DNA of 64,000 nt. Source: an uncultured Candidatus Saccharibacteria bacterium. GTDB lineage: Bacteria > Patescibacteriota > CALEFQ01 > G965231055. Within the stretch, counting starts at the first letter, position 1; the number at the start of each line of letters is the position of its first letter. The position numbers and the translations under genes were made by a program. The stretch covers positions 409,875-473,874 of the forward strand of contig OZ246411.1 in the NCBI GenBank assembly GCA_965231055.1, read 5' to 3'. The notes under the pieces are model-generated. The model was not told the DNA's origin. It worked only from the letters and a program-made list of their open reading frames with translations, and searched no databases. Below are positions 11,011-48,373 of the stretch, piece after piece.

Positions 11011-11051
11011 AAAATAAATACAAAATAATATGAAAGGGGGTGACAAGAAAA

Positions 11052-11417
11052 ATGTTTAACAAAAAAGGTTTTACTCTCGTTGAGCTCTTGGTGGTTATTG
11101 CTATTATCGGTATTTTGGCCGCTATAGTAATAGTCAACTTGGCTACAGCAAGAGACAAGGCAAACGACGCACAAGCAACAGCTTATGCTCGCAATGCCGC
11201 AACAGCTCTAGAAATGTCTAGAGATGATAATGAAACTTATCCAGCTGCTTGGGATTTGAGTGGAGATCAGGCTGATGCTCTTGGAACATATATAGGAGTA
11301 TTTGATTGGCCAGCTGGTACCTCGGGAGCTTATACCTATGTAGATGATACCCATTACGATATAGCAGTAACTTTGAATAGTGGATCATTCGCATGCGATG
11401 AAACTGGTTGTAGATAA
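11052..11417 (+). CDS. pilA: type IV major pilin (prepilin with class III signal peptide)
   Basis: MFNKKGFTLVELLVVIAIIGILAAI N-methylation/cleavage motif; strong SD AAAGGGGGTGA 8 nt upstream of the ATG at 11052; the ORF track starts at an upstream GTG (11040). Confidence 0.9.
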   Translation: MFNKKGFTLVELLVVIAIIGILAAIVIVNLATARDKANDAQATAYARNAATALEMSRDDNETYPAAWDLSGDQADALGTYIGVFDWPAGTSGAYTYVDDTHYDIAVTLNSGSFACDETGCR

Positions 11418-11429
11418 TTATATATCTTA

Positions 11430-11452
11430 GGGTTAAAGGGGTCCTTTAACCC
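11430..11452 (+). terminator. perfect 10-bp hairpin after the pilin gene (attenuator/terminator-like; weak U-tract)
   Basis: GGGTTAAAGG ggt CCTTTAACCC followed by tttcat. Confidence 0.5.
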
Positions 11453-11458
11453 TTTCAT

Positions 11459-12247
11459 ATGTCAATGATCTATTATTATATTTTACTTTTTGTATTTGGA
11501 TTGATATTTGGTAGTTTTGCCAACGTCCTTATTTTTAGACTCAAAAAAAGAGAGGACTTGGTGTTTAAAAGATCATATTGTCCCACTTGCAAAAAGACTC
11601 TAAAATGGTACGACCTGATTCCCGTAATCAGCTTTTTTATTTTGCGTGGAATTTGCAGAAACTGCAGGAAAAAAATCAGCATTCAGTATCCAGTGGTAGA
11701 ACTTTGTACTGGTTTGATGTTTGTGGTTATGGGCTACTGGGCAAATTCGCAAAATTTAGTAGGGTGGTATTATGCAGTATCTTTGATATTTGGTTTGTAT
11801 ATGGCTTTTGTTTTTATTTCGCTATTTGTCTACGACCTTAAGTATATGGAGCTACCTGACTCCATTATGCTTCCATCTATAGCTGTGGCTATTTTTTATT
11901 TTTTAACAGTGTATCCCGATAGGTGGCTTTCGCTTGTTATAGGAATTGGAGTTTCTTTTATATTTTTTCTTTTGATTTTTGTTTTTTCGAAAGGCAAGGC
12001 GATGGGTGGGGGAGATGTGAAGCTCGCGATACTTATCGGAGCTATTTGTGTATGGCCCGGAACTTTGTTGGCATTGCTTTTGGCTTTTGTAGGTGGAGCG
12101 ATTATTGGAATTATTCTTGTTATGATAAAGAAAAAGAATATGAAAAGCGAAATACCTTTCGGAATTTTCATAATTCCATCAATAGTAATAGTGATGATAT
12201 GGGGAGACTTGATAGTTGATTGGTATTTAAAAATGCTTTCTTTATAA
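11459..12247 (+). CDS. pilD: prepilin peptidase (A24 family)
   Basis: N-terminal CPTC...CRNC zinc-finger-like tetracysteine, multiple TM helices, GGGDVKL region. Confidence 0.85.
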   Translation: MSMIYYYILLFVFGLIFGSFANVLIFRLKKREDLVFKRSYCPTCKKTLKWYDLIPVISFFILRGICRNCRKKISIQYPVVELCTGLMFVVMGYWANSQNLVGWYYAVSLIFGLYMAFVFISLFVYDLKYMELPDSIMLPSIAVAIFYFLTVYPDRWLSLVIGIGVSFIFFLLIFVFSKGKAMGGGDVKLAILIGAICVWPGTLLALLLAFVGGAIIGIILVMIKKKNMKSEIPFGIFIIPSIVIVMIWGDLIVDWYLKMLSL

Positions 12248-12252
12248 AAAAT

Positions 12253-12897
12253 ATGTATTTTATTAAATCACAAAAAGGATTTTCCCTAATAGAAATGCTC
12301 GTAGTAATAGCTATGATAGGCATACTCTCCGTACTTGTGTTTGCAGATTTTAGGGGTCAGGGGCAAAACACTCTTTTTAAATATACCTCGGAAGATGTTT
12401 TGGGTGCAGCTATTCAGGTGCGAGAGTTTTCAAAATCAGGAAAAATACTTTCCACAATCAATCAGGTTCCGCTGGGTGGATATGGAATATTTTTTGATAT
12501 AGGATCTGGCGTAATATCTCAATTCGCCGATACAAATAATAATGATATTTTTGATGAAAAAAGTAAAAACGAATTTATTGCCAAGGTGAGTTACAATTCA
12601 AATTTCATGATTAGTGAATTCTATCTGGGAAAAAATACCTTAGTGCCTGTAGATAGTGAGCTTGATAAAGAATACTTTGATGATAAGTCGGGCAAGTCTC
12701 AGCCATCTAAAAGTAAATTTTACGTGATTTTTGAGAATCCCAATGGTGACATGCTGATAGTTGACGAAAAGGGTCAAAGCGATTATGCCTCCGCATCACT
12801 AGGATTACTAAATAAAACAACGGGTCAAAAATTGTACTTAAATTTTTCAAAACAATCTGGTGCCATAAGCATAGATGAAAATGTTATTAAAAAATAA
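12253..12897 (+). CDS. minor pilin / pseudopilin (prepilin-type N-terminal domain)
   Basis: MYFIKSQKGFSLIEMLVVIAMIGILS; start chosen at the internal Met giving a short leader. Confidence 0.75.
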   Translation: MYFIKSQKGFSLIEMLVVIAMIGILSVLVFADFRGQGQNTLFKYTSEDVLGAAIQVREFSKSGKILSTINQVPLGGYGIFFDIGSGVISQFADTNNNDIFDEKSKNEFIAKVSYNSNFMISEFYLGKNTLVPVDSELDKEYFDDKSGKSQPSKSKFYVIFENPNGDMLIVDEKGQSDYASASLGLLNKTTGQKLYLNFSKQSGAISIDENVIKK

Positions 12898-12916
12898 AGC
12901 TAAAAAGATTGGTTTT

Positions 12917-13480
12917 ATGACCAATAATAAAGGATTTTCACTTATAGAGGCACTTGTTGCTATCTCGGTTGTTGTAGTTGGAATTGGTGGAGGATTGATG
13001 ATAACTGCAAACTCTATAAAGGTTGGAACACTTGGTAGTCAAGAATTTATTGCTTCAAATTTAGCTCAGGAGGGGGTAGAGTTTACGCGAGCTTTTCGCG
13101 ATAAGTATTGGCTGGAGGGACTTGATTATGATCAGATGTCTTCACGAGGATACATACCAAAAGAAGGAGTGTCTAGAAGTTACAGAGTACATATTAATTC
13201 TCGCGGAAAGCTTGTTATGGAGAGTGTATTGTATTCAGATCCTTTTGCCAATGGCTTTTTGCTTTATAATTCTCCTGGGGGAGATTTGGATGGTGTTTTT
13301 ACTCATGATATATCTAAAACCGAATCAATATTTTATAGAAAAGTTGATATAAGAAGAGCTGGCGTGGGAGATGAGGATTTTTTGCAAGGAGGTTTGATAG
13401 TGACGTGCGTAGTTAGCTGGAAAACAAATACGGGAAATAAATCAGTAGAATTACAAGATGTTTTATATGATTGGAAATAA
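12917..13480 (+). CDS. minor pilin / pseudopilin (prepilin-type N-terminal domain)
   Basis: MTNNKGFSLIEALVAISVVVVGIGG; start at an internal Met of the listed ORF. Confidence 0.7.
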   Translation: MTNNKGFSLIEALVAISVVVVGIGGGLMITANSIKVGTLGSQEFIASNLAQEGVEFTRAFRDKYWLEGLDYDQMSSRGYIPKEGVSRSYRVHINSRGKLVMESVLYSDPFANGFLLYNSPGGDLDGVFTHDISKTESIFYRKVDIRRAGVGDEDFLQGGLIVTCVVSWKTNTGNKSVELQDVLYDWK

Positions 13481-14009
13481 AAAACAAAACAATAAGAGAG
13501 GATTTACCATTGTCGAGATGGTAGTTGCGGTTACTATTTTTTCTGTTGTCGTTGTTATTGCTATAGGTTCTTTTTTGGCCGTACTCACAGCAAACACCAA
13601 AAGCTTGGGGGTCAAAAATATTCAACAAGATGCAAGGTATATAATGGATCAAATAGCTCACGACGTGAGATCTGGAACTATCGATTATGTTAATCATGAT
13701 GACAAGCTTTCAACTTTGCATATAGTTTTGCGTGATGGAAGTAGGGTGGAGTATAGCTTTGTAGTTTTGGGATCAGAAGATGGTGCGGGCAATATTTTTT
13801 ATAAAGACGCCAATGGAAATAGCACAAAGATAAATTCGGATAAAGTTGATATTATCGATATGAAGTTTGCGGTTTATCCCAATTCAAGCTCCGAATTATC
13901 AAGCGAACAACCGAGAGTAACTATTATAGGAGTTTTTCAAAGCAAAGATGATGCAAAATCAAGATTTAGGGTTCAAACATCTGTTGTCTCTAGACAATAT
14001 ATAAAATAA
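13467..14009 (+). CDS. minor pilin / pseudopilin (prepilin-type N-terminal domain)
   Basis: MIGNKKQNNKRGFTIVEMVVAVTIFSVVVV. Confidence 0.7.
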   Translation: MIGNKKQNNKRGFTIVEMVVAVTIFSVVVVIAIGSFLAVLTANTKSLGVKNIQQDARYIMDQIAHDVRSGTIDYVNHDDKLSTLHIVLRDGSRVEYSFVVLGSEDGAGNIFYKDANGNSTKINSDKVDIIDMKFAVYPNSSSELSSEQPRVTIIGVFQSKDDAKSRFRVQTSVVSRQYIK

Positions 14010-14012
14010 ATT

Positions 14013-14810
14013 ATGAATTCTAGGGGATCTACATTGATTATAGGTTTGTTGATACTTTCAGCTGTGATATCAACTAGTATTTTGATAGGTGGAATAGTTT
14101 TTAGAGAACTCGGGGTGGCTTTTAGCATTTCAAAGTCTCAAAATGCTTATTACGCTGCTGAATCTGGATCTGAGATGGTGCTGTATCAATGGGTAAAAAA
14201 TGGTAGCGTAAAATTTGATAAGGGGTATTTGAAAGATGTTGATACCGTCTGGGGCGTGAAATATCAAAATTCTGCTATAAATCTTTCGGGGGACCTGGGA
14301 CAGCATCAAACCAAAGAAATTCCACTATACAATGTTGTTGACGATGAGCCTCTAGATGGATTGCATGAAGCTACTGTTTACTGGGGTGGTGGGGGTAGAA
14401 TGGAGTATAGTCTTTTTTCTTGGAATGATGATGAGCAAATAAGTTTTTTTACGAAAGGCGGAGAAATAAGCAGGGGAGTCATGAATGCGACGAGCTGTGT
14501 TTCTTCGGGTGAATATGATTGTCAAATTAGCTTTAAAAATCTAGATGATACAAAGAAATATGTAGTTAGGTTTAGGCCTATGTGTGATTTTAGCTATGGT
14601 TTGTGTGGTAATTCTTGGATCTATAGCTTTGAGGCCTTGGATACTTTTGGTGATCAAATAGAGCTTCCCATAGGATTTATAGCTACTTCTACGGGAGAAT
14701 CGTCAAGTGAATATAGAAGAAAAATCGAGTCGATTCTTCCGCTAAGAGGAGAAACTTTTGGTATATTTGATTATGGTATATTCTCGGACGAAGCCCTAAA
14801 GCTTAATTAA
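14013..14810 (+). CDS. PilX N-terminal domain protein (pilus-associated minor pilin-like)
   Basis: RGSTLIIGLLILSAVISTS...SQNAYYAAESGSEMVLYQW resembles the PilX N-terminal consensus; last gene of the pilus operon. Confidence 0.6.
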   Translation: MNSRGSTLIIGLLILSAVISTSILIGGIVFRELGVAFSISKSQNAYYAAESGSEMVLYQWVKNGSVKFDKGYLKDVDTVWGVKYQNSAINLSGDLGQHQTKEIPLYNVVDDEPLDGLHEATVYWGGGGRMEYSLFSWNDDEQISFFTKGGEISRGVMNATSCVSSGEYDCQISFKNLDDTKKYVVRFRPMCDFSYGLCGNSWIYSFEALDTFGDQIELPIGFIATSTGESSSEYRRKIESILPLRGETFGIFDYGIFSDEALKLN

Positions 14811-37267: not shown

Positions 37268-37290
37268 CTTTATAATTTAAAAAAACAAAA

Positions 37291-38553
37291 ATGGAAAACG
37301 AATCAATGCCGGAGATGAATGCGCCAGAGAGCAATTCAACTCCACCAAGTAATCATGTGCCAAAAGCAATGCTTTGGGTAGTGATTGTAGCGATCATTGC
37401 TATCGCCTTAGTGGTGTTAATGGTTTTTTGGATGAATCAAGATGAAACAGTAGCTCCATCTGCAAATCCAGCTGCTAAGTCGGGGACTGCGACAGAATCA
37501 ACCGTGGACGCAGGGGCTTTTACGGGGTGGAATACATGTGAATGGGAGCAATATGGAATCACTTTGAAATATCCTTCAGGATGGACTTGTGAGAAAAAAT
37601 CGGATGAGAAAAATATAGAAGGTAAGACCGCTCTAAACTTTCTTTTTACGAATACAGATAAGACTGCAAAATTCAGAATCGGCTTTAGACCCAAGGGTAA
37701 TAATGATTATGCAGGACTTGCCATGACAGGAACGGGCGCTGGTGATTTGTCCGATATATCTCGTAGTGTTGATTTCGGAGCTTTTTCGTTGCAGCCCCAT
37801 TATCTTACTTATGGTGGCAGGAGAACTATGGTTTATTGGGGTAATGCGACTAATAACGAGATGAAAGATTATGAGTACAGTTTCTACTTTAATGTTGTAG
37901 ATTCTTCAACTGGTAATATTTCAGATGTAGATATTTCTACAGCTGAAAAAATGATTTCATCTATTGAGGTTAATAGCGACACCGTCGCCACTGACACTAG
38001 GACAACGCTTACCTCAGACAACTATGATCGGTTTTGTACTAAGGGGGACGATTGTCAAAATAAGTTTAAGAATATAAATAAAGACGAGTCAAATACAACC
38101 GTAAGATATAGTAATAGCGATCTTGGGATCGCCTTTGACGTGCCATATAATACCAGTTGGATTAATGATCAATATAAACTGAATCCTTATGATTCAGCCA
38201 TTTCGTCAACGGGCGACACTGTTTTGTATTTTGGTCCTATGGGTTTGAATTGTGAAGGGATCTGCGCAATAAGTCGACGTCATTACTCTTTGAGGATTAT
38301 TCAGCCCGAGAGTGCAGAGAAAGTTATGCAAAGGTATTCAGGTATAAACCTTTACGGTCCAGAAGTGGTTTTTATAGGAGGATTAAAAGCCGTGAAATAT
38401 GCAGAAACAGCTATGGGTGATGGATATTATGTGGAAGTTGTTGGAACAAAACATAATTATATTTTTGAATTTTCGGATTTCGGAGTCGATTCTGGTTCTG
38501 ATGCTTTTGCTAAAGTTGAAAATATAGTGAAGAGCGTGGACCTTATTGATTAG
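37291..38553 (+). CDS. N-terminally anchored extracellular protein, paralog family member 1
   Basis: MENESMPE...PKAMLWVVIVAIIAIALVVLMVFWMN anchor, then a low-complexity linker; C-terminal domain shared with 42185..43276. Confidence 0.8.
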   Translation: MENESMPEMNAPESNSTPPSNHVPKAMLWVVIVAIIAIALVVLMVFWMNQDETVAPSANPAAKSGTATESTVDAGAFTGWNTCEWEQYGITLKYPSGWTCEKKSDEKNIEGKTALNFLFTNTDKTAKFRIGFRPKGNNDYAGLAMTGTGAGDLSDISRSVDFGAFSLQPHYLTYGGRRTMVYWGNATNNEMKDYEYSFYFNVVDSSTGNISDVDISTAEKMISSIEVNSDTVATDTRTTLTSDNYDRFCTKGDDCQNKFKNINKDESNTTVRYSNSDLGIAFDVPYNTSWINDQYKLNPYDSAISSTGDTVLYFGPMGLNCEGICAISRRHYSLRIIQPESAEKVMQRYSGINLYGPEVVFIGGLKAVKYAETAMGDGYYVEVVGTKHNYIFEFSDFGVDSGSDAFAKVENIVKSVDLID

Positions 38554-38597
38554 TCGTAGTGAACTAAACACGCAATAAACTATTAAGAATAAAACAA

Positions 38598-39596
38598 ATG
38601 GAAAACTCAATGGATCCTCAAGTGGATCAGCCAGATAATACTGGTCACATGCCAAAAGCGATGTTGTGGCTAATAATAGTAGCGATTATAATGATTGGGG
38701 TAGTAGTGTTTCTAACTTTTTGGATGAATAACGATGATAGTGTAGCACCATCAGTTACAATAAATACCAGTACGGCAAATGAGGCGACAGATGTTGTCCA
38801 AGAACAAGCCAATGATGACTTTGAGGGATGGCAGACAAAAACAGCGACATATAAATACGGTAATACTAGTATTGATTTCACAATTAGGATACCTGGTGCG
38901 TGGTCTTCGGATAATGGTGTAACTGGTTTTGCTGCAGTAGATAAGGGCACTACTAATGGTTTTAATGGAACCACATGCATGCTTAAAACTCGCTGGGATC
39001 ACGGGTTAGAGGATTTTTCTAACACAGGAACCAGAAATTTAGACTATAAGAGCTTTAATCAAGTCGCGAATACTCGTATTAATAGTAAGGGTACCGAGTG
39101 GACTCAGGTCAATGTGAGCGGAATTGTGTTTGAGGTCTGGGCTTTTGAAAATCAGCAGAACTGTTATGACACAGTCGCACAGGCCTTGTGGAGTATGGAG
39201 CCAAATAACTATCAAAGTTTTTCTGGAGAAGGTTTTTCATTAAACTATCCATCCGGTTGGTATAGTAACGCTACGAGCGGGCCCAGTTTCTCTGAATTGG
39301 CTGGGTTTAATCCAGATGGAGTTTCTCACGTAGACTATAAGGTTTTAGTTGGAATACTGTCTGTGGATAAACAAAGTTATATAGATGGGCTAGCTAGTTC
39401 CAATCTAGTTTTACAAAGCAGAGATGATAATTTTACTGTAAGTAGTCAAAAAGTTGTGAAATTGGTTTATAAGAATATCACATCAAACAGGCTTACTACA
39501 TATTATGTGTTTGACTCTGCTGGTAAGGTAACTGTCGTAGTCGGTGAAGATCCTGAAATCAATCCTTTTGCCGACGCTCTTTCCGTTCATCCATAG
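38598..39596 (+). CDS. N-terminally anchored extracellular protein, paralog family member 2 (divergent C-terminus)
   Basis: MENSMDP...PKAMLWLIIVAIIMIGVVVFLTFWMN anchor. Confidence 0.8.
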   Translation: MENSMDPQVDQPDNTGHMPKAMLWLIIVAIIMIGVVVFLTFWMNNDDSVAPSVTINTSTANEATDVVQEQANDDFEGWQTKTATYKYGNTSIDFTIRIPGAWSSDNGVTGFAAVDKGTTNGFNGTTCMLKTRWDHGLEDFSNTGTRNLDYKSFNQVANTRINSKGTEWTQVNVSGIVFEVWAFENQQNCYDTVAQALWSMEPNNYQSFSGEGFSLNYPSGWYSNATSGPSFSELAGFNPDGVSHVDYKVLVGILSVDKQSYIDGLASSNLVLQSRDDNFTVSSQKVVKLVYKNITSNRLTTYYVFDSAGKVTVVVGEDPEINPFADALSVHP

Positions 39597-39616
39597 ATAT
39601 TTTAGGTAAATAAAAC

Positions 39617-39644
39617 GCGGGATCCCTGATGGGGTCCCGCTTTG
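39617..39644. terminator. bidirectional intrinsic terminator
   Basis: GCGGGATCCC tgat GGGGTCCCGC flanked by A-run and T-run. Confidence 0.7.
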
Positions 39645-39651
39645 TCATTGT

Positions 39652-39867
39652 CTATTGCTTTTGGATTTGCTTTGCTGATTCGGAATTTATTGGGGATATA
39701 ACCATTCCTCTAAATCCAATTCCGAGAATGAGCAGTCCCGATAATAAAGTTACTATGAAGACTGCGGTCTTGGGTTGATTTTCCTTCGAGAAATTTGCCC
39801 TTAGGAAAAGGTAAATCAGGCTTATAAGTGCAATTATTGCGCCAAACAATGCTACCAAATAATACAT
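39652..39867 (-). CDS. small two-TM membrane protein
   Basis: 71 aa; strong SD AAGGAGGT 5 nt upstream of the ATG on the minus strand. Confidence 0.65.
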   Translation of the reverse strand: MYYLVALFGAIIALISLIYLFLRANFSKENQPKTAVFIVTLLSGLLILGIGFRGMVISPINSESAKQIQKQ

Positions 39868-39980
39868 AAAGAGTACCTCCTTGATTCAAATCTAGCACCA
39901 AGGTTTTTTATTTGCAATAAACCTTGTTTTTAGGGCGATTTTTTGGCTTAGATTAGCGGTAAAAACGCTATGTTTTGGAC

Positions 39981-40009
39981 TTGCACTAGGGCAATAAAAC
40001 TGGTATACT
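39981..40009 (+). promoter_or_regulatory. strong sigma70-like promoter for gyrB (TTGCAC - 17 nt - TGgTATACT)
   Basis: TTGCAC 39981-39986; TATACT 40004-40009 with upstream TG. Confidence 0.6.
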
Positions 40010-40065
40010 TTTTGTGTGTAAAAAGGTTATTTTTGGACCCAATTCGGGTTATTTTGTTAAGTATT

Positions 40066-42169
<2,104 letters not shown>

Positions 42170-42184
42170 TTGCTAAACAAAAAA

Positions 42185-43276
42185 ATGGAAAACGAATCAA
42201 TGTCTCCCGTGGCTGAGCAAAAAAATCCTAATCATTTACCAAAAGCAATGCTTTGGGTAGTGATTGTGGCAATCATTGCTATTGCCTTAGTGATGTTAAT
42301 GGTTTTTTGGATGAACAAAAATGAGCCAACCACAGCGCCTTCTGTAAAAATAAACACAGAGTCCGAATCTACAGCGGATACGGTCACAGAAACGGAGTTC
42401 AAAAAATACACAAGTGATTTAGGATTTAGCCTAAACATCCCTAACGGAGTAGAGCGCACTAATGCCTTGAGTGATTCAAATAATCGTCTTGTTATGTGGG
42501 AAGGTATGGGGCTAGAATTTGAAGTTAGGTATAAAAATGATGCAACCACCACTATCGAAAATTATATTCATCTTGATTTTCCTCGAGATTCATTCTCTAT
42601 ATTGGGAGGAGAAAAGGCAAATGTAACCAAATCAACAACTGGATATTGTGATGGACCTGGTTGTGGAGATCCCTTCATAGCCTATACCGCTAAAAAAGGA
42701 AATGACTTTGTGAGTTTGGTTTTCTACGGCGACGTCAATCTTAGTGACATTGAGCAAGACATCCTCGATTCTTTTACGTTTATAAAATCTAGCGCTGAAG
42801 CTGGCACGAGAACAGATGATATTGCGGGGTGGAATGCGTGCGAATGGAAGCAATACGGAATTACTTTTAAATATCCTTCGGAGTGGACTTGCGAACAAAA
42901 ATCTGATGAAAAAGATGCGCTTGGTAGATCTTTTCTTTTTTTCAGATTTTCAAATTCAGATAAAAATCAATTCCTTGGAATCGGATTTGTTCCAAAGGGA
43001 TCTGAGCAATATGCTCCCTATGGCTATTCCGGTGCTTTGATAGGGGATTTAAGTGAAGTTCGTGAAGTTAATTTTGGTGATAAAGTTTTAATTGCTCATG
43101 AACTAACTTCTGACACTGGAATGAGAAATTTGGTTTGGTGGGGTGATAGACTAATTAATGAATATGGAAATTTTACATATAGTTTTCATATGACCGGAGA
43201 CGGGTCGATGAACTTTAGTGATTCTGACATAGCTACCGCCGAAAAAATTATTTCTTCTATAAAAATTTCCGAATAA
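42185..43276 (+). CDS. N-terminally anchored extracellular protein, paralog family member 3
   Basis: start at MENESMSP; anchor PKAMLWVVIVAIIAIALVMLMVFWMN is near-identical at DNA level to 37291; C-terminal GWNACEWKQYGITFKYPSEWTCEQKSDEK domain shared with member 1. Confidence 0.8.
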   Translation: MENESMSPVAEQKNPNHLPKAMLWVVIVAIIAIALVMLMVFWMNKNEPTTAPSVKINTESESTADTVTETEFKKYTSDLGFSLNIPNGVERTNALSDSNNRLVMWEGMGLEFEVRYKNDATTTIENYIHLDFPRDSFSILGGEKANVTKSTTGYCDGPGCGDPFIAYTAKKGNDFVSLVFYGDVNLSDIEQDILDSFTFIKSSAEAGTRTDDIAGWNACEWKQYGITFKYPSEWTCEQKSDEKDALGRSFLFFRFSNSDKNQFLGIGFVPKGSEQYAPYGYSGALIGDLSEVREVNFGDKVLIAHELTSDTGMRNLVWWGDRLINEYGNFTYSFHMTGDGSMNFSDSDIATAEKIISSIKISE

Positions 43277-43295
43277 GACATTCTATTGACACCAT

Positions 43296-43342
43296 GGGGC
43301 TTTTGGGTGTAATGTATACCCGAAGCCCCAGAGGGCTTTTTA
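43296..43342 (+). terminator. intrinsic terminator-like hairpin
   Basis: GGGGCTTTTGGGTGTA atg TATACCCGAAGCCCC then agagggcTTTTT. Confidence 0.5.
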
Positions 43343-43348
43343 AAAAAC

Positions 43349-43466
43349 GAGTGTTCAGCAATCAGTGCTCAGTATTCATTATTAGTTTTTATTGTAATAA
43401 TGAATTAATGGGGGGCATTAAGTGAGTTATTTGGAATACTGAAAACTGATTACTGAATACTAATAA
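43349..43466 (+). repeat. TTCAGT-rich inverted repeat (family B), about 35-nt arms around a 47-nt spacer, immediately upstream of secE
   Basis: left arm GAGTGTTCAGCAATCAGTGCTCAGTATTCA; right arm GGAATACTGAAAACTGATTACTGAATACT, which is the reverse complement of the left-arm pattern. Confidence 0.65.
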
Positions 43467-43470
43467 ACAT

Positions 43471-43656
43471 ATGTTTGAACGTATTGTAAATTTCATCAAA
43501 GAGGCCAGGGTAGAGCTTAAAAAAGTTGTATGGCCAACTAAGAAAGAAGTGTGGAAGGGAACCCTTACCGTGATTTTTGTAAGTGTAGCTACCGCTATCT
43601 ATTTGGGTGTACTTGATTTGGTTTTTGAAAATATCTTGAAAATAGTAATCAGATAA
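43471..43656 (+). CDS. secE: preprotein translocase subunit SecE
   Basis: 61 aa; KVVWPTKKEVW then a TM helix; precedes nusG. Confidence 0.85.
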   Translation: MFERIVNFIKEARVELKKVVWPTKKEVWKGTLTVIFVSVATAIYLGVLDLVFENILKIVIR

Positions 43657-43661
43657 TCAAT

Positions 43662-43717
43662 CAGTGTTCAGCAGTCAGTATTCAAAACAGTAAATATACT
43701 GAAAGTTGAACACTAAA
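43662..43717 (+). repeat. TTCAGT-rich inverted repeat (family B) between secE and nusG
   Basis: CAGTGTTCAGCAGTCAGTATTCA ... ATACTGAAAGTTGAACACTAAA. Confidence 0.6.
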
Positions 43718-46696: not shown

Positions 46697-48373
46697 ATGT
46701 CTTATAAGTATTTAAATTGCAAAAAGGTAGAATCTCTTTTGTCTAAAAAAGATATGGCGAAAGAGATTTTTGAAGAATTAGAGTTTGGTCCTAATTCAGC
46801 TTTTTCTATTTGTAGGGCAAAGAGCCAGAAGCCTGGTAGTTTTGTGCTTCAAAAATATCCTTCAAATAAGCTCAAGAAATGGCCAATTTTCTCAGGCTCT
46901 TATCGGGTGAGAGATCCTAGGTGTTCAGTTGCCGTTGCTTTTCCTTTTCAGGAGGAGGTGCTTTTGGAGGAGGCACTGAGGGCTGGGGCCGCGATTGCTG
47001 GACCCTGTGTTACTCCGGACTTGGGGCCCGAGATAGTGATATCCAATATATTGGCAAACCCAAATATTAGATATCTTATTGTTGCGGGAAAAGAAAGTGG
47101 GCATATGTCTGGAGACATACTTAGTAATGCAAATTGGAACGGAGTAGATCCTAAAACAAAAAGAGTAATTGGAACTAAGTCAAAATCAAATCCTTATTTT
47201 CAAAACTTATCCCAAGAAGATATAGAAAAGTTTAAAAAAAGAGTAAAAGTGATAAATTTCATTTCTCCTTATTTTCCGGAAGACAGAAAAAACGTGGCTA
47301 ATACTATTAAGCTAATAGTAAGATGCTGTTTGCAAGAACCTTGGAATAAAATAAGATTCAAAAATAAAATGACGGGTCAGGATATTGTTCTATTTGATCC
47401 TGGATCGGAGGGTTTAAGTCCACATATTACGGCACTAAAAAAACCAGAAACAACGATAGTAGCTGAGGGTATTAGTAGAAATGGATCTAGTATTCACGCT
47501 AGGTATTTGGCAGATGCATACGAACCTTTTAAATCTTATTTATTGGTTCATGGCTCATGGGGTAAGGAAGAATCTGGCAGATTTGCTCTAGATATGCCGG
47601 GTTTTCAAATTACCATAGAAGATACTACTAAAAACTTAGTACCTCGTCGTTGGTATCCGGAGGGTTGGCTTACAAAGTTTAACGAAGTTGTGAATTACGT
47701 AGAGAGCTATGCTACGTGGGTTTATTTATTCCCTCTATCTATTATTAGAAAATCTTTGGGAAAATATCCAATGCCATATATTCCAGACATGAAGCTGATA
47801 GATTATTCTTACGGTACCAGGATAACGACATACTGGATAGATCTAGCATCTAGAAAAGAGAAGCGTCGAATAATAAAAAATGTTGAAGAAATTCACAAAA
47901 AATATTGTTCAGGTAAAAAAGTGCCTTCATTTGATGAAATAATAAAATTTCACGAAAAACTTTCCAAGGTGCAAAAAAAATCATTCAACCAGCTCAGGAG
48001 TGTTGCTAGGCAAGTTGCTTTATGTGTAAAAGAGGGAATAGGCGCTTCTTATAGAATTTATATGAGTTTGCATATTCCTATTTTTGATATGAATGATGAT
48101 CCCAGGGAAGCGCATCAGCCTTGTTTTATTGCTTACGCTTTTTATCCGAGACTCATCGAAAATAAATGGCAGCTAGACGCTGTTATGTATATGAGGGCCA
48201 ATGATGTTAGAGCTATGCCTGCAAATGCATATGGTGGAATAAAGCTCATGCACTTTGTGGCACATTGGGCTTCTAAGATTGCAAAAAAGAGGATTTTACC
48301 TGGAGTTTATACTCATCAAACAGGATGTGCTAATTATTGCGATTATATGTTGCCTAAGAATTTCAAGAAATAA
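46697..48373 (+). CDS. thymidylate synthase (ThyA/dCMP-hydroxymethylase superfamily)-like protein with a roughly 400-aa N-terminal extension
   Basis: C-terminal QPCFIAYAFYP ... LDAVMYMRANDVRAMPANAYGGIKLM aligns with the ThyA PCH ... LSCQLYQRSxDVFLGLPFNIASYALL core (Cys, Arg, Asp, Asn conserved); the N-terminal 400 aa is unrecognised. Confidence 0.6.
   Translation: MSYKYLNCKKVESLLSKKDMAKEIFEELEFGPNSAFSICRAKSQKPGSFVLQKYPSNKLKKWPIFSGSYRVRDPRCSVAVAFPFQEEVLLEEALRAGAAIAGPCVTPDLGPEIVISNILANPNIRYLIVAGKESGHMSGDILSNANWNGVDPKTKRVIGTKSKSNPYFQNLSQEDIEKFKKRVKVINFISPYFPEDRKNVANTIKLIVRCCLQEPWNKIRFKNKMTGQDIVLFDPGSEGLSPHITALKKPETTIVAEGISRNGSSIHARYLADAYEPFKSYLLVHGSWGKEESGRFALDMPGFQITIEDTTKNLVPRRWYPEGWLTKFNEVVNYVESYATWVYLFPLSIIRKSLGKYPMPYIPDMKLIDYSYGTRITTYWIDLASRKEKRRIIKNVEEIHKKYCSGKKVPSFDEIIKFHEKLSKVQKKSFNQLRSVARQVALCVKEGIGASYRIYMSLHIPIFDMNDDPREAHQPCFIAYAFYPRLIENKWQLDAVMYMRANDVRAMPANAYGGIKLMHFVAHWASKIAKKRILPGVYTHQTGCANYCDYMLPKNFKK

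Follow-up and report, generated by a model that had tools for sequence, protein, structure and literature searches.

Three genes with a common anchor module around gyrB encode putative membrane-anchored, domain-shuffled proteins in an uncultured patescibacterium

RESULTS

Three paralogous genes on either side of gyrB

We analyzed a stretch of 64,000 nucleotides (here, the window) from an uncultured “Candidatus Saccharibacteria” bacterium (GenBank assembly GCA_965231055.1, contig OZ246411.1, positions 409,875 to 473,874 of the forward strand) and, within it, a family of three genes located around gyrB, referred to as members 1, 2, and 3. Table 1 shows the coordinates of the genes, of the parts of their products, and of the DNA segments that they share. 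An earlier note on this DNA, made from the sequence alone, had described three open reading frames (ORFs) sharing an N-terminal module. All three were present on the + strand with the starts that it had given, and they have in common a tail, a predicted transmembrane core of 23 residues, and the motif FWMN. The N-terminal modules align with 24 invariant columns, including MEN, H.PKAMLW, IVAII, FWMN, and APS, and the anchor follows the pattern H.PKAMLW(V/L)(V/I)IVAII...FWMN in the three members. No further family member was found among the ORFs of the window, which sets the size of the family at three within these 64 kb.

An independent assembly (Logan SRR10912416), with 100% identity to the window across 21 kb, contains calls for the same three genes. 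The strain variation that the earlier note had proposed to look for in metagenomes was therefore absent between the two available assemblies. In the Logan assembly the genes are called from the first ATG, and the NCBI calls start at the second in-frame ATG (415, 328, and 358 amino acids [aa] for members 1, 2, and 3). With the start codon ambiguous, ATGGAAAAC (37291-37308, 38598-38612, and 42185-42202) may be coding sequence or 5' leader. The 22-nt block AAAAATGGAAAACGAATCAATG corresponds to the first six codons if translation begins at the first ATG and to 5' leader if the NCBI start (second ATG) holds.

At the DNA level, the anchor-encoding blocks of members 1 and 3 were 91% identical over 96 nt (71% to that of member 2) and included an exact run of 29 nt (37360-37388 and 42239-42267). 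The best 75-nt window, starting at 37362, reached 94.7% identity, with 0 matches expected in shuffles. These values match the ca. 95% identity over ca. 75 nt of the earlier note, which had also placed AAAAATGGAAAACGAATCAATG within that segment. Here it did not hold, as AAAAATGGAAAACGAATCAATG is a separate block, and between the two lies a diverged leader of 41 nt in member 1 and 26 nt in member 3 (a 15-nt indel).

Table 1 Features of the three-gene family and its surroundings (positions in the window)
Feature	Coordinates	Strand	Remarks
Member 1	37291-38553	+	ORF, 420 aa; start 23 nt past the pheT stop codon
22-nt start-codon block AAAAATGGAAAACGAATCAATG	37287-37308	+	Identical copy at 42181-42202
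Member 1, N-terminal tail	37291-37365	+	aa 1-25
Member 1, anchor-encoding DNA block	37350-37445	+	Pairs with the member 3 block and with the member 2 block at 38642-38737
Member 1, predicted transmembrane core	37366-37434	+	aa 26-48
Member 1, linker	37435-37515	+	aa 49-75
Member 1, domain A	37516-37986	+	aa 76-232
Member 1, domain B	37987-38550	+	aa 233-420
Member 2	38598-39596	+	ORF, 332 aa
Member 2, N-terminal tail		+	aa 1-20
Member 2, predicted transmembrane core	38658-38726	+	aa 21-43
Member 2, linker		+	aa 44-75
Member 2, domain D	38823-39212	+	aa 76-205
Member 2, domain E	39213-39593	+	aa 206-332
Intrinsic-terminator-like hairpin	39617-39640	+	3' of member 2; 10-bp stem with 8 G-C pairs, then a T-run
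gyrB	40127-42169	+	Between members 2 and 3; backbone gene, outside the family
Member 3	42185-43276	+	ORF, 363 aa; start 15 nt past the gyrB stop codon; alternative TTG start at 42170
Member 3, N-terminal tail		+	aa 1-20
Member 3, anchor-encoding DNA block	42229-42324	+	Partner of 37350-37445
Member 3, predicted transmembrane core	42245-42313	+	aa 21-43
Member 3, linker		+	aa 44-70
Member 3, domain C	42395-42820	+	aa 71-212
Member 3, domain A'	42821-43273	+	aa 213-363

Two globular units per protein, in shuffled order

In each member, an acidic tail of 20 to 25 residues, rich in Pro, Asn, and Ser, leads to the 23-residue hydrophobic core, a low-complexity linker, and two globular units. The order of the units is A-B in member 1, D-E in member 2, and C-A' in member 3. 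Units A and A' (the GWN.CEW... domain) shared 49 to 51% amino acid identity (E values of 1e-44 to 1e-48). In member 1 this domain is the membrane-proximal unit and in member 3 the distal one, so the domains have been shuffled. The homologous but diverged C-terminal domains of the earlier note are thus real for this pair, but their positions differ, and the family displays six shuffled units rather than one diverged ectodomain. As the same note had stated, member 2 has a different ectodomain, without detectable similarity to members 1 and 3 save for a strand motif of 10 residues.

All six units start with a hairpin motif (e.g., GITLKYPSGW, GFSLNYPSGW, or GFSLNIPNG) and end with a helix and a short strand. 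Units B, C, D, and E had no likeness to one another beyond this opening hairpin. The number of cysteines per unit was always even (2, 4, 2, 0, 2, and 2, with two in A and four in B of member 1), and the anchors contained none.

The earlier note had named a lipoprotein or sortase-substrate class as the alternative to a variable surface family, and neither signature was detected. There was no lipobox ([LVI][ASTVI][GAS]C), nor any Cys within the first 70 to 75 residues of any member, and the LPxT[GAS] sortase motif was absent from members 1 to 3, whose C termini are hydrophilic. Likewise, no AxA-type or small-x-small cleavage site follows the 23-residue core in the three members. We infer from these sequence features that they are single-pass, N-terminally signal-anchored proteins that carry the units on the outside of the membrane. 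The family proposed in the earlier note does consist of real paralogues whose anchor is conserved and whose ectodomains vary, and its location at the surface is a prediction.

Predicted fold of the units

A model of member 3 was built with AlphaFold2 (AF2) on an alignment of 117 sequences. Domain C was predicted with high confidence (predicted local distance difference test [pLDDT] of 93 to 98), together with a transmembrane helix at residues 20 to 44. Domain A had lower confidence in this model (pLDDT of 35 to 86), with its secondary-structure elements in the same order as in C. The prediction for member 2, from a single sequence, failed (pLDDT of 38) and was unusable except for a transmembrane helix at residues 18 to 43. 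Thus, the structure prediction recommended by the earlier note gave a confident result for domain C.

When the member 3 model was compared with the PDB using Foldseek, the top match was CyanoP (2lnj; E value of 4e-4, template modeling [TM] score of 0.56, and probability of 1.0). Further matches were plant PsbP, the immunity protein Tsi3 of a type VI secretion system (T6SS), BT_1490, and Apa of Mycobacterium tuberculosis, all of them Mog1/PsbP-like (E values of 4e-4 to 3e-2, TM scores of 0.44 to 0.56, and probabilities of 0.96 to 1.0). The predicted fold of domain C is Mog1/PsbP-like. Comparing the other units with the domain C family by hhalign gave probabilities of 44 to 50% for A, 34% for E, and ca. 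5% for B and D, and a single fold for all six units is plausible but unproven.

The Mog1/PsbP-like proteins PsbP and CyanoP of photosystem II, the lipoprotein DcrB (DUF1795), Tsi3, and Apa are found outside the cytoplasm in association with membranes, and they bind or scaffold without being catalytic (PMC7716261). Domain C shares with them the fold predicted for it, but only 10 to 15% sequence identity and no motif. Moreover, the window provides no photosystem, T6SS, or mycobacterial context, and the trio differs in having units in tandem and, as anchor, a putative transmembrane helix instead of a lipid.

A lineage-specific offshoot of a widespread class

A word-indexed search of 5.8 billion proteins with member 1 retrieved only itself and member 3, and with member 2 it retrieved only the self-match, that is, no homologue outside its own genome, a single NCBI contig of 843,892 bp. 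For member 3, an exhaustive HMMER search recovered 245 representatives at an E value of ≤1e-3 (best foreign match, 4e-51), nearly all of them aligned to residues ca. 70 to 200, i.e., domain C, while domain A matched member 1 only. Against a profile built from these matches, member 3 scored 163 bits over positions 1 to 132, and members 1 and 2 aligned only along the first 25 to 55 positions. Most matches were either proteins of ca. 190 to 210 aa that combine an anchor with a single unit or multi-unit proteins. Their general design is a tail, a transmembrane segment or signal peptide, a P/T/S linker, and one to four units of the type “DW(K/Q)TY.N..LGFE.KYP ... ILSTFKF.” More broadly, this class of units, with its opening “W.(T)Y....GF.(L/F).YP..W” hairpin and its closing helix and “..S(F/I)(K/E)(F/V)” strand, is common in Patescibacteria. 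Domain C proper is recognized by the conserved motif GYCDGP.C..PF (CxxxxC) within the pattern “NRLV.F..FEV..YYYLDF..GYCDGP.C..PF.AY..DFYNL.F.GD..LS..E..IL.SFKF.”

The closest Pfam model was PsbP_2 (PF18933; cutoff, 27 bits), which scored 33.0 bits in member 3, 22.1 in member 1, and had no match in member 2. The trio resembles PsbP_2 proteins in the N-terminal transmembrane segment, the low-complexity linker, and the unit opening W.TY..GF.F.YP, and multi-unit relatives match the model too. However, the match in member 3 covers only profile positions 2 to 83 of 184, corresponding to the anchor, linker, and first strand (foreign relatives, 28 to 76). Therefore, no Pfam model reaches the main part of domain C (GYCDGP.C..PF ... 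ILSTFKF), and A, B, D, and E in their entirety lie outside PsbP_2. The proteins of the window differ also in having two units each, with four orphan unit types (A, B, D, and E). We consider domain C (42395-42793 in the window and matches P0004 to P0150) an unnamed family and a candidate for a new domain-database entry. Scans of NCBIfam, PDB sequences, and Rfam gave nothing relevant (in Rfam, only three tRNAs), and a literature search on PsbP-like proteins in the candidate phyla radiation (CPR)/Patescibacteria found no paper.

When units A, B, D, and E were compared with the other units of multi-domain relatives, the opening hairpin alone could be aligned, and whole-domain homology is unproven. 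The specific anchor H.PKAMLW...FWMN was missing from all 147 foreign family members, which have generic hydrophobic anchors instead, and a scan for the anchor module in 241 million metagenome records gave 251 pattern matches, none of which was confirmed. The trio is a lineage-specific, domain-shuffled offshoot of a widespread, uncharacterized class of anchored proteins with PsbP-like units, as predicted, in Patescibacteria.

The anchor is conserved within the genome and divergent between genomes

The amino acid identity among the three anchors ranged from 64 to 93% (64 to 68% between member 2 and the other two). For members 1 and 3, the proportion of synonymous differences (pS) in the anchor was 0.28, and 17 of the 21 identical residues (81%) used the same codon, against a fraction of 0.37 expected from codon usage (binomial P = 5e-5). 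In domain A of the same pair, pS was saturated (0.74), the nonsynonymous divergence (dN) was 0.45, and identical residues shared the codon in 35 of 71 cases (49%; expected fraction, 0.45). The difference in same-codon use between anchor and domain A was significant (Fisher P = 0.012). Therefore, the common ancestor of the two anchors is more recent than that of the ectodomains. Of the two origins that the earlier note had proposed, recent duplication or gene conversion, these data give statistical support to the latter, in that members 1 and 3 may have come to share the anchor by partial gene conversion or a recent exchange. Member 2 showed another picture. Its anchor shared codons with those of members 1 and 3 at chance level (7/15 and 4/14), with a pS of 0.60 to 0.77 and yet a low proportion of nonsynonymous differences (pN, 0.20 to 0.22), which indicates selection on the protein sequence.

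Starting from the closest foreign match of member 3 (P0004), we traced a contig of 1.9 kb (L164) that contains the P0004 gene, a 95-aa Cys-rich ORF, secE (70% identity to the window), and nusG (90%). Since nusG identity to the window reached a maximum of 76% in the gyrB-anchored loci, L164 represents the closest relative available, and P0004 occupies the slot of member 3. P0004 consists of an anchor and domain C only. Between the window and L164, dN was 0.056 for nusG and 0.17 for secE, increasing to 0.30 for domain C (60% amino acid identity). The linker reached 0.82, and the tail and transmembrane segment (22% identity) reached 0.96. Of all parts, the anchor thus shows the lowest conservation between genomes and the highest among the paralogues of this genome. 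Given that the anchor of P0004 is only 22% identical, the anchor has been kept alike within this genome. The pattern would fit concerted evolution, or else an expansion within this lineage in which the anchor came under new constraint. Regarding the “diversifying” character that the earlier note had attributed to the family, the genes do evolve much faster than their neighbors, but positive selection was not supported, since the dN of domain A stands against saturated synonymous divergence (dS).

The 95-aa ORF (L164:753-1040) has 10 Cys and no transmembrane segment. It lies between the anchor-plus-C gene and secE, in the position of domain A, and is not similar to A.

Insertion-tolerant junctions in a conserved block

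The best GyrB match in 185,579 species representatives plus 241 million metagenome records was only 65% identical, and the best matches all came from Patescibacteria (Kerfeld-, Komeili-, Buchanan-, Falkow-, and Uhrbacteria types). The order uvrD-pheS-pheT-gyrB-secE-nusG-L11-L1-dCMP deaminase was widely kept in the matched loci. Between pheT and gyrB, the gap was <300 bp in 30 of 58 loci, with a maximum of 7.7 kb, and in the window it measures 2,859 bp and contains members 1 and 2. Similarly, gyrB and secE were <300 bp apart in 36 of 72 loci, with a maximum of 5.4 kb, and 1,301 bp apart in the window, with member 3 in between. The larger gaps at these junctions in relatives contained assorted genes. 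The family sits in two junctions of a conserved block that tolerate insertions, and therefore gyrB is part of the backbone and not cargo. Its position in the middle of the array, pointed out in the earlier note, is correct as a description but incidental, as pheT-gyrB-secE is conserved in relatives.

We scanned the gyrB flanks of relatives with a relaxed motif, after a positive control, and found a few proteins of the same class, namely, in the gyrB-secE slot of L013 and after L11 in L096 and L129. The latter two insertions (L096:4899-8222 and L129:6639-7445) code for signal-peptide proteins with the C-terminal unit ANWQTY.N..YGYEIKYP ... ILSTF(K/S). They indicate that the secE-nusG-L11-L1 block takes this class of proteins at other junctions as well.

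The short distances from pheT to member 1 (23 nt) and from gyrB to member 3 (15 nt), together with a strong terminator after member 2 (its function deduced from a consensus scan alone), suggest two putative transcription units, pheS-pheT-member 1-member 2 and gyrB-member 3.

DISCUSSION

A model for the trio

On balance, we consider it probable that the trio consists of anchored surface proteins with two units each, shuffled among paralogues, and with an anchor homogenized within the genome. The short acidic tail would be cytoplasmic, and after the transmembrane helix, a flexible linker of ca. 25 to 35 residues (Pro/Thr/Ser/Ala) would display two alpha/beta units outside the cell. At the cell surface, these units would serve for binding or scaffolding and have no catalytic role, given that the fold class is tied to adhesin-like proteins, immunity proteins, and complexes anchored in membranes. 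Expression would probably be constitutive, by read-through from pheST and gyrB. As to their history, a pheT-gyrB-secE block with two junctions accepting accessory genes may have harbored an ancestral anchor-plus-domain C gene upstream of secE. The family would then have grown locally by duplication and domain shuffling, with B, D, and E as orphans, and both gene conversion (members 1 and 3) and protein-level selection (member 2) would have helped to keep its N-terminal module alike.

Several observations weigh against parts of this model. The topology is not settled by charge, since the N-terminal tails have a net charge of -1 to -3 and a single invariant Lys stands next to the helix. TM scores of ca. 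0.5 are at the border of what is considered the same fold, and the Foldseek output gave no view of which residues of member 3 were aligned. For A, B, D, and E, the support for the fold is weak (the low pLDDT values of A and member 2 and hhalign probabilities of ≤50%), while PsbP_2 extends no further than the first strand and exceeds its cutoff in member 3 only. The conversion test involved just 28 codons, and a diverged leader with an indel between two DNA blocks is not what a single, simple conversion tract would leave. The orthology of P0004 depends on a single short contig that does not carry gyrB and shows synteny on just one side.

Alternative explanations

Regarding the nature of the proteins, the hydrophobic segment could be a cleaved Sec signal peptide, so that the proteins would be released and not anchored. 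Some relatives within the unit class do have a cleavable signal peptide or a lipobox (L096, L129, P0006, and P0011), and 7 of the 147 matches were lipobox-like. In the trio, however, the region before the helix is acidic and 20 to 25 residues long, and the core of 23 residues has the length of a transmembrane segment, in contrast to the 7 to 15 typical of signal peptides. The core continues into FWMN(Q/N/K)(D/N)(E/D) without a small-x-small site, and AF2 predicted one continuous helix of 25 residues, all of which makes cleavage improbable. We give even less credit to a type IV pilin-like nature, in which the prepilin peptidase would recognize PKA|MLW (class III signal). Bacteria of the CPR depend on type IV pili, a pilin-like cluster is present in the window, and the Pfam model Pilin_N gave sub-threshold matches (14 to 20 bits against a cutoff of 25.2). 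Nevertheless, the pilin-like genes of this very genome carry a canonical KGF(T/S)L(V/I)E, while members 1 to 3 lack the Gly at -1 and the Glu at +5. Unlike in a pilin, a disordered linker of ca. 25 to 35 residues (pLDDT of 51 to 60) separates the helix from the globular domain, and the globular fold matched PsbP and no pilin. A locus of phase or antigenic variation is hardly more credible. In the Vsp/Vlp systems of Mycoplasma, paralogues in a reduced genome combine a highly conserved 5' end and N-terminal membrane anchor with divergent surface-exposed parts (PMC9630594). The trio shares this coupling, including an N-terminal membrane-anchoring segment with divergent mature parts, and has short A-runs upstream of the start codons, so its conserved 5' end might be a substrate for recombination or an expression switch. 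Nonetheless, the mature regions of Vsp/Vlp proteins are repetitive, and these lipoproteins are encoded in clusters of ca. 13 genes and switched by site-specific recombination or promoter tracts, none of which was found here. There are only three genes, and between 36.5 and 44 kb we saw no internal tandem repeats, recombinase, inverted repeats, or invertible segment. The spacers of 15 to 23 nt behind essential genes also leave no separate switchable promoter, and the two assemblies were identical. The pilin, lipoprotein, sortase-substrate, and Vsp-like readings were all rejected, as their defining features failed.

With regard to the similarity of the anchors, there might have been no conversion at all. 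In this scenario, the genes would have duplicated in this lineage after the split from L164, the shared anchor would reflect descent plus purifying selection, and the ectodomains would have been replaced through recombination or diverged very fast. The anchor of member 2, with synonymous saturation and a low pN, demonstrates that selection at the protein level alone can keep the module, and the diverged leader between the conserved blocks speaks against one long, recent conversion tract. In addition, dS between the window and L164 was saturated everywhere, which makes the relative timing unresolvable. On the other hand, one duplication date cannot yield an anchor with a pS of 0.28 and 81% same codons plus a domain A with a pS of 0.74 and 49%, and the slot-equivalent gene of L164 (anchor, 22%; domain C, 60%) shows the reverse of a uniformly constrained anchor. 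We therefore regard this explanation as unlikely, although it should be kept in mind. It is rather doubtful, too, that the N-terminal module acts as a dedicated recognition element, be it for a shared membrane partner, for a hetero-oligomer of the three helices, or as a processing or sorting signal. Its 24 invariant columns, against the generic hydrophobic anchors of foreign members, and a parallel case in another genome (L064, see below) point in that direction. No known sorting motif matched, though, no partner gene was evident in the junctions, and the pattern of shared anchors is rare (1 of 160 relative loci). Besides, the anchor is not conserved in the slot-equivalent gene of the closest relative. 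A more speculative proposal, to which we attach a similarly low likelihood, is that the module (the MEN tail, H.PKAMLW...IVAII...FWMN, and APS) is a lineage-specific, exchangeable “display cassette,” kept identical by gene conversion, onto which unrelated binding domains are shuffled. It would then be recognized by a membrane partner or assembly common to the paralogues.

The parallel just mentioned is found in the pheT-gyrB junction of a distant metagenome-assembled genome (MAG) labeled Saccharibacteria (L064:7406-9723, CAYFQT010000022.1), with three tandem genes on the + strand coding for proteins of 168, 254, and 329 aa. Their N-terminal anchors are 64 to 77% identical and their ectodomains lack detectable similarity, the only such case among the relative loci. 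Unlike our trio, they have an anchor of their own, MNKK.LI.L...GGYFYFSKK, short and signal-peptide-like, and their ectodomains are not PsbP-like units (one has an HPGWDF motif reminiscent of peptidases).

Significance

CPR/Patescibacteria are thought to live attached to hosts and have very small genomes, and their surface proteome is mostly unannotated. Within the model that we favor, the locus offers a small, clean example of how this proteome changes, with accessory anchored proteins located at fixed junctions of a frozen housekeeping block. In it, domains are shuffled among paralogues while the anchor is homogenized within the genome and diverges between genomes, the former being the unusual feature of the trio. 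The locus also flags the unnamed domain C family of ca. 245 representatives, with a conserved CxxxxC and a predicted PsbP-like fold. It is no new kind of system and does not overturn current views; its value is descriptive, along with a hint at an anchor-specific function. If the display cassette were real, it would let an episymbiotic CPR cell vary its surface presentation, and the L064 trio in the pheT-gyrB junction hints at a recurrent strategy in Patescibacteria.

Other features of the window

A cluster of pilin or pseudopilin genes, made up of short ORFs on the + strand, was located at 11040-14810 and served as an internal control for the pilin reading. At least two of its ORFs (11040-11417 and 12220-12897) start with KGF(T/S)L(V/I)E, the canonical type IV prepilin signal, and continue into a hydrophobic helix. 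Between member 2 and gyrB, past the terminator, there is an antisense ORF of 71 aa with two hydrophobic segments (39652-39867, - strand), which may not be a gene, because it was not called on the Logan contig and had no BLAST match in the loci of relatives. A 31-nt direct repeat (43341-43371 and 43654-43684; 77% identical; ...GTGTTCAGCA.TCAGT..TCA) flanks secE, the first copy being upstream of the gene and the second at its 3' end. Farther downstream (46697-48373), a gene flanked by those for dCMP deaminase and thymidylate kinase encodes a protein of 558 aa that matched the Pfam family MtrA (PF04208), the subunit A of the tetrahydromethanopterin S-methyltransferase of methanogens, which is unexpected in Patescibacteria.

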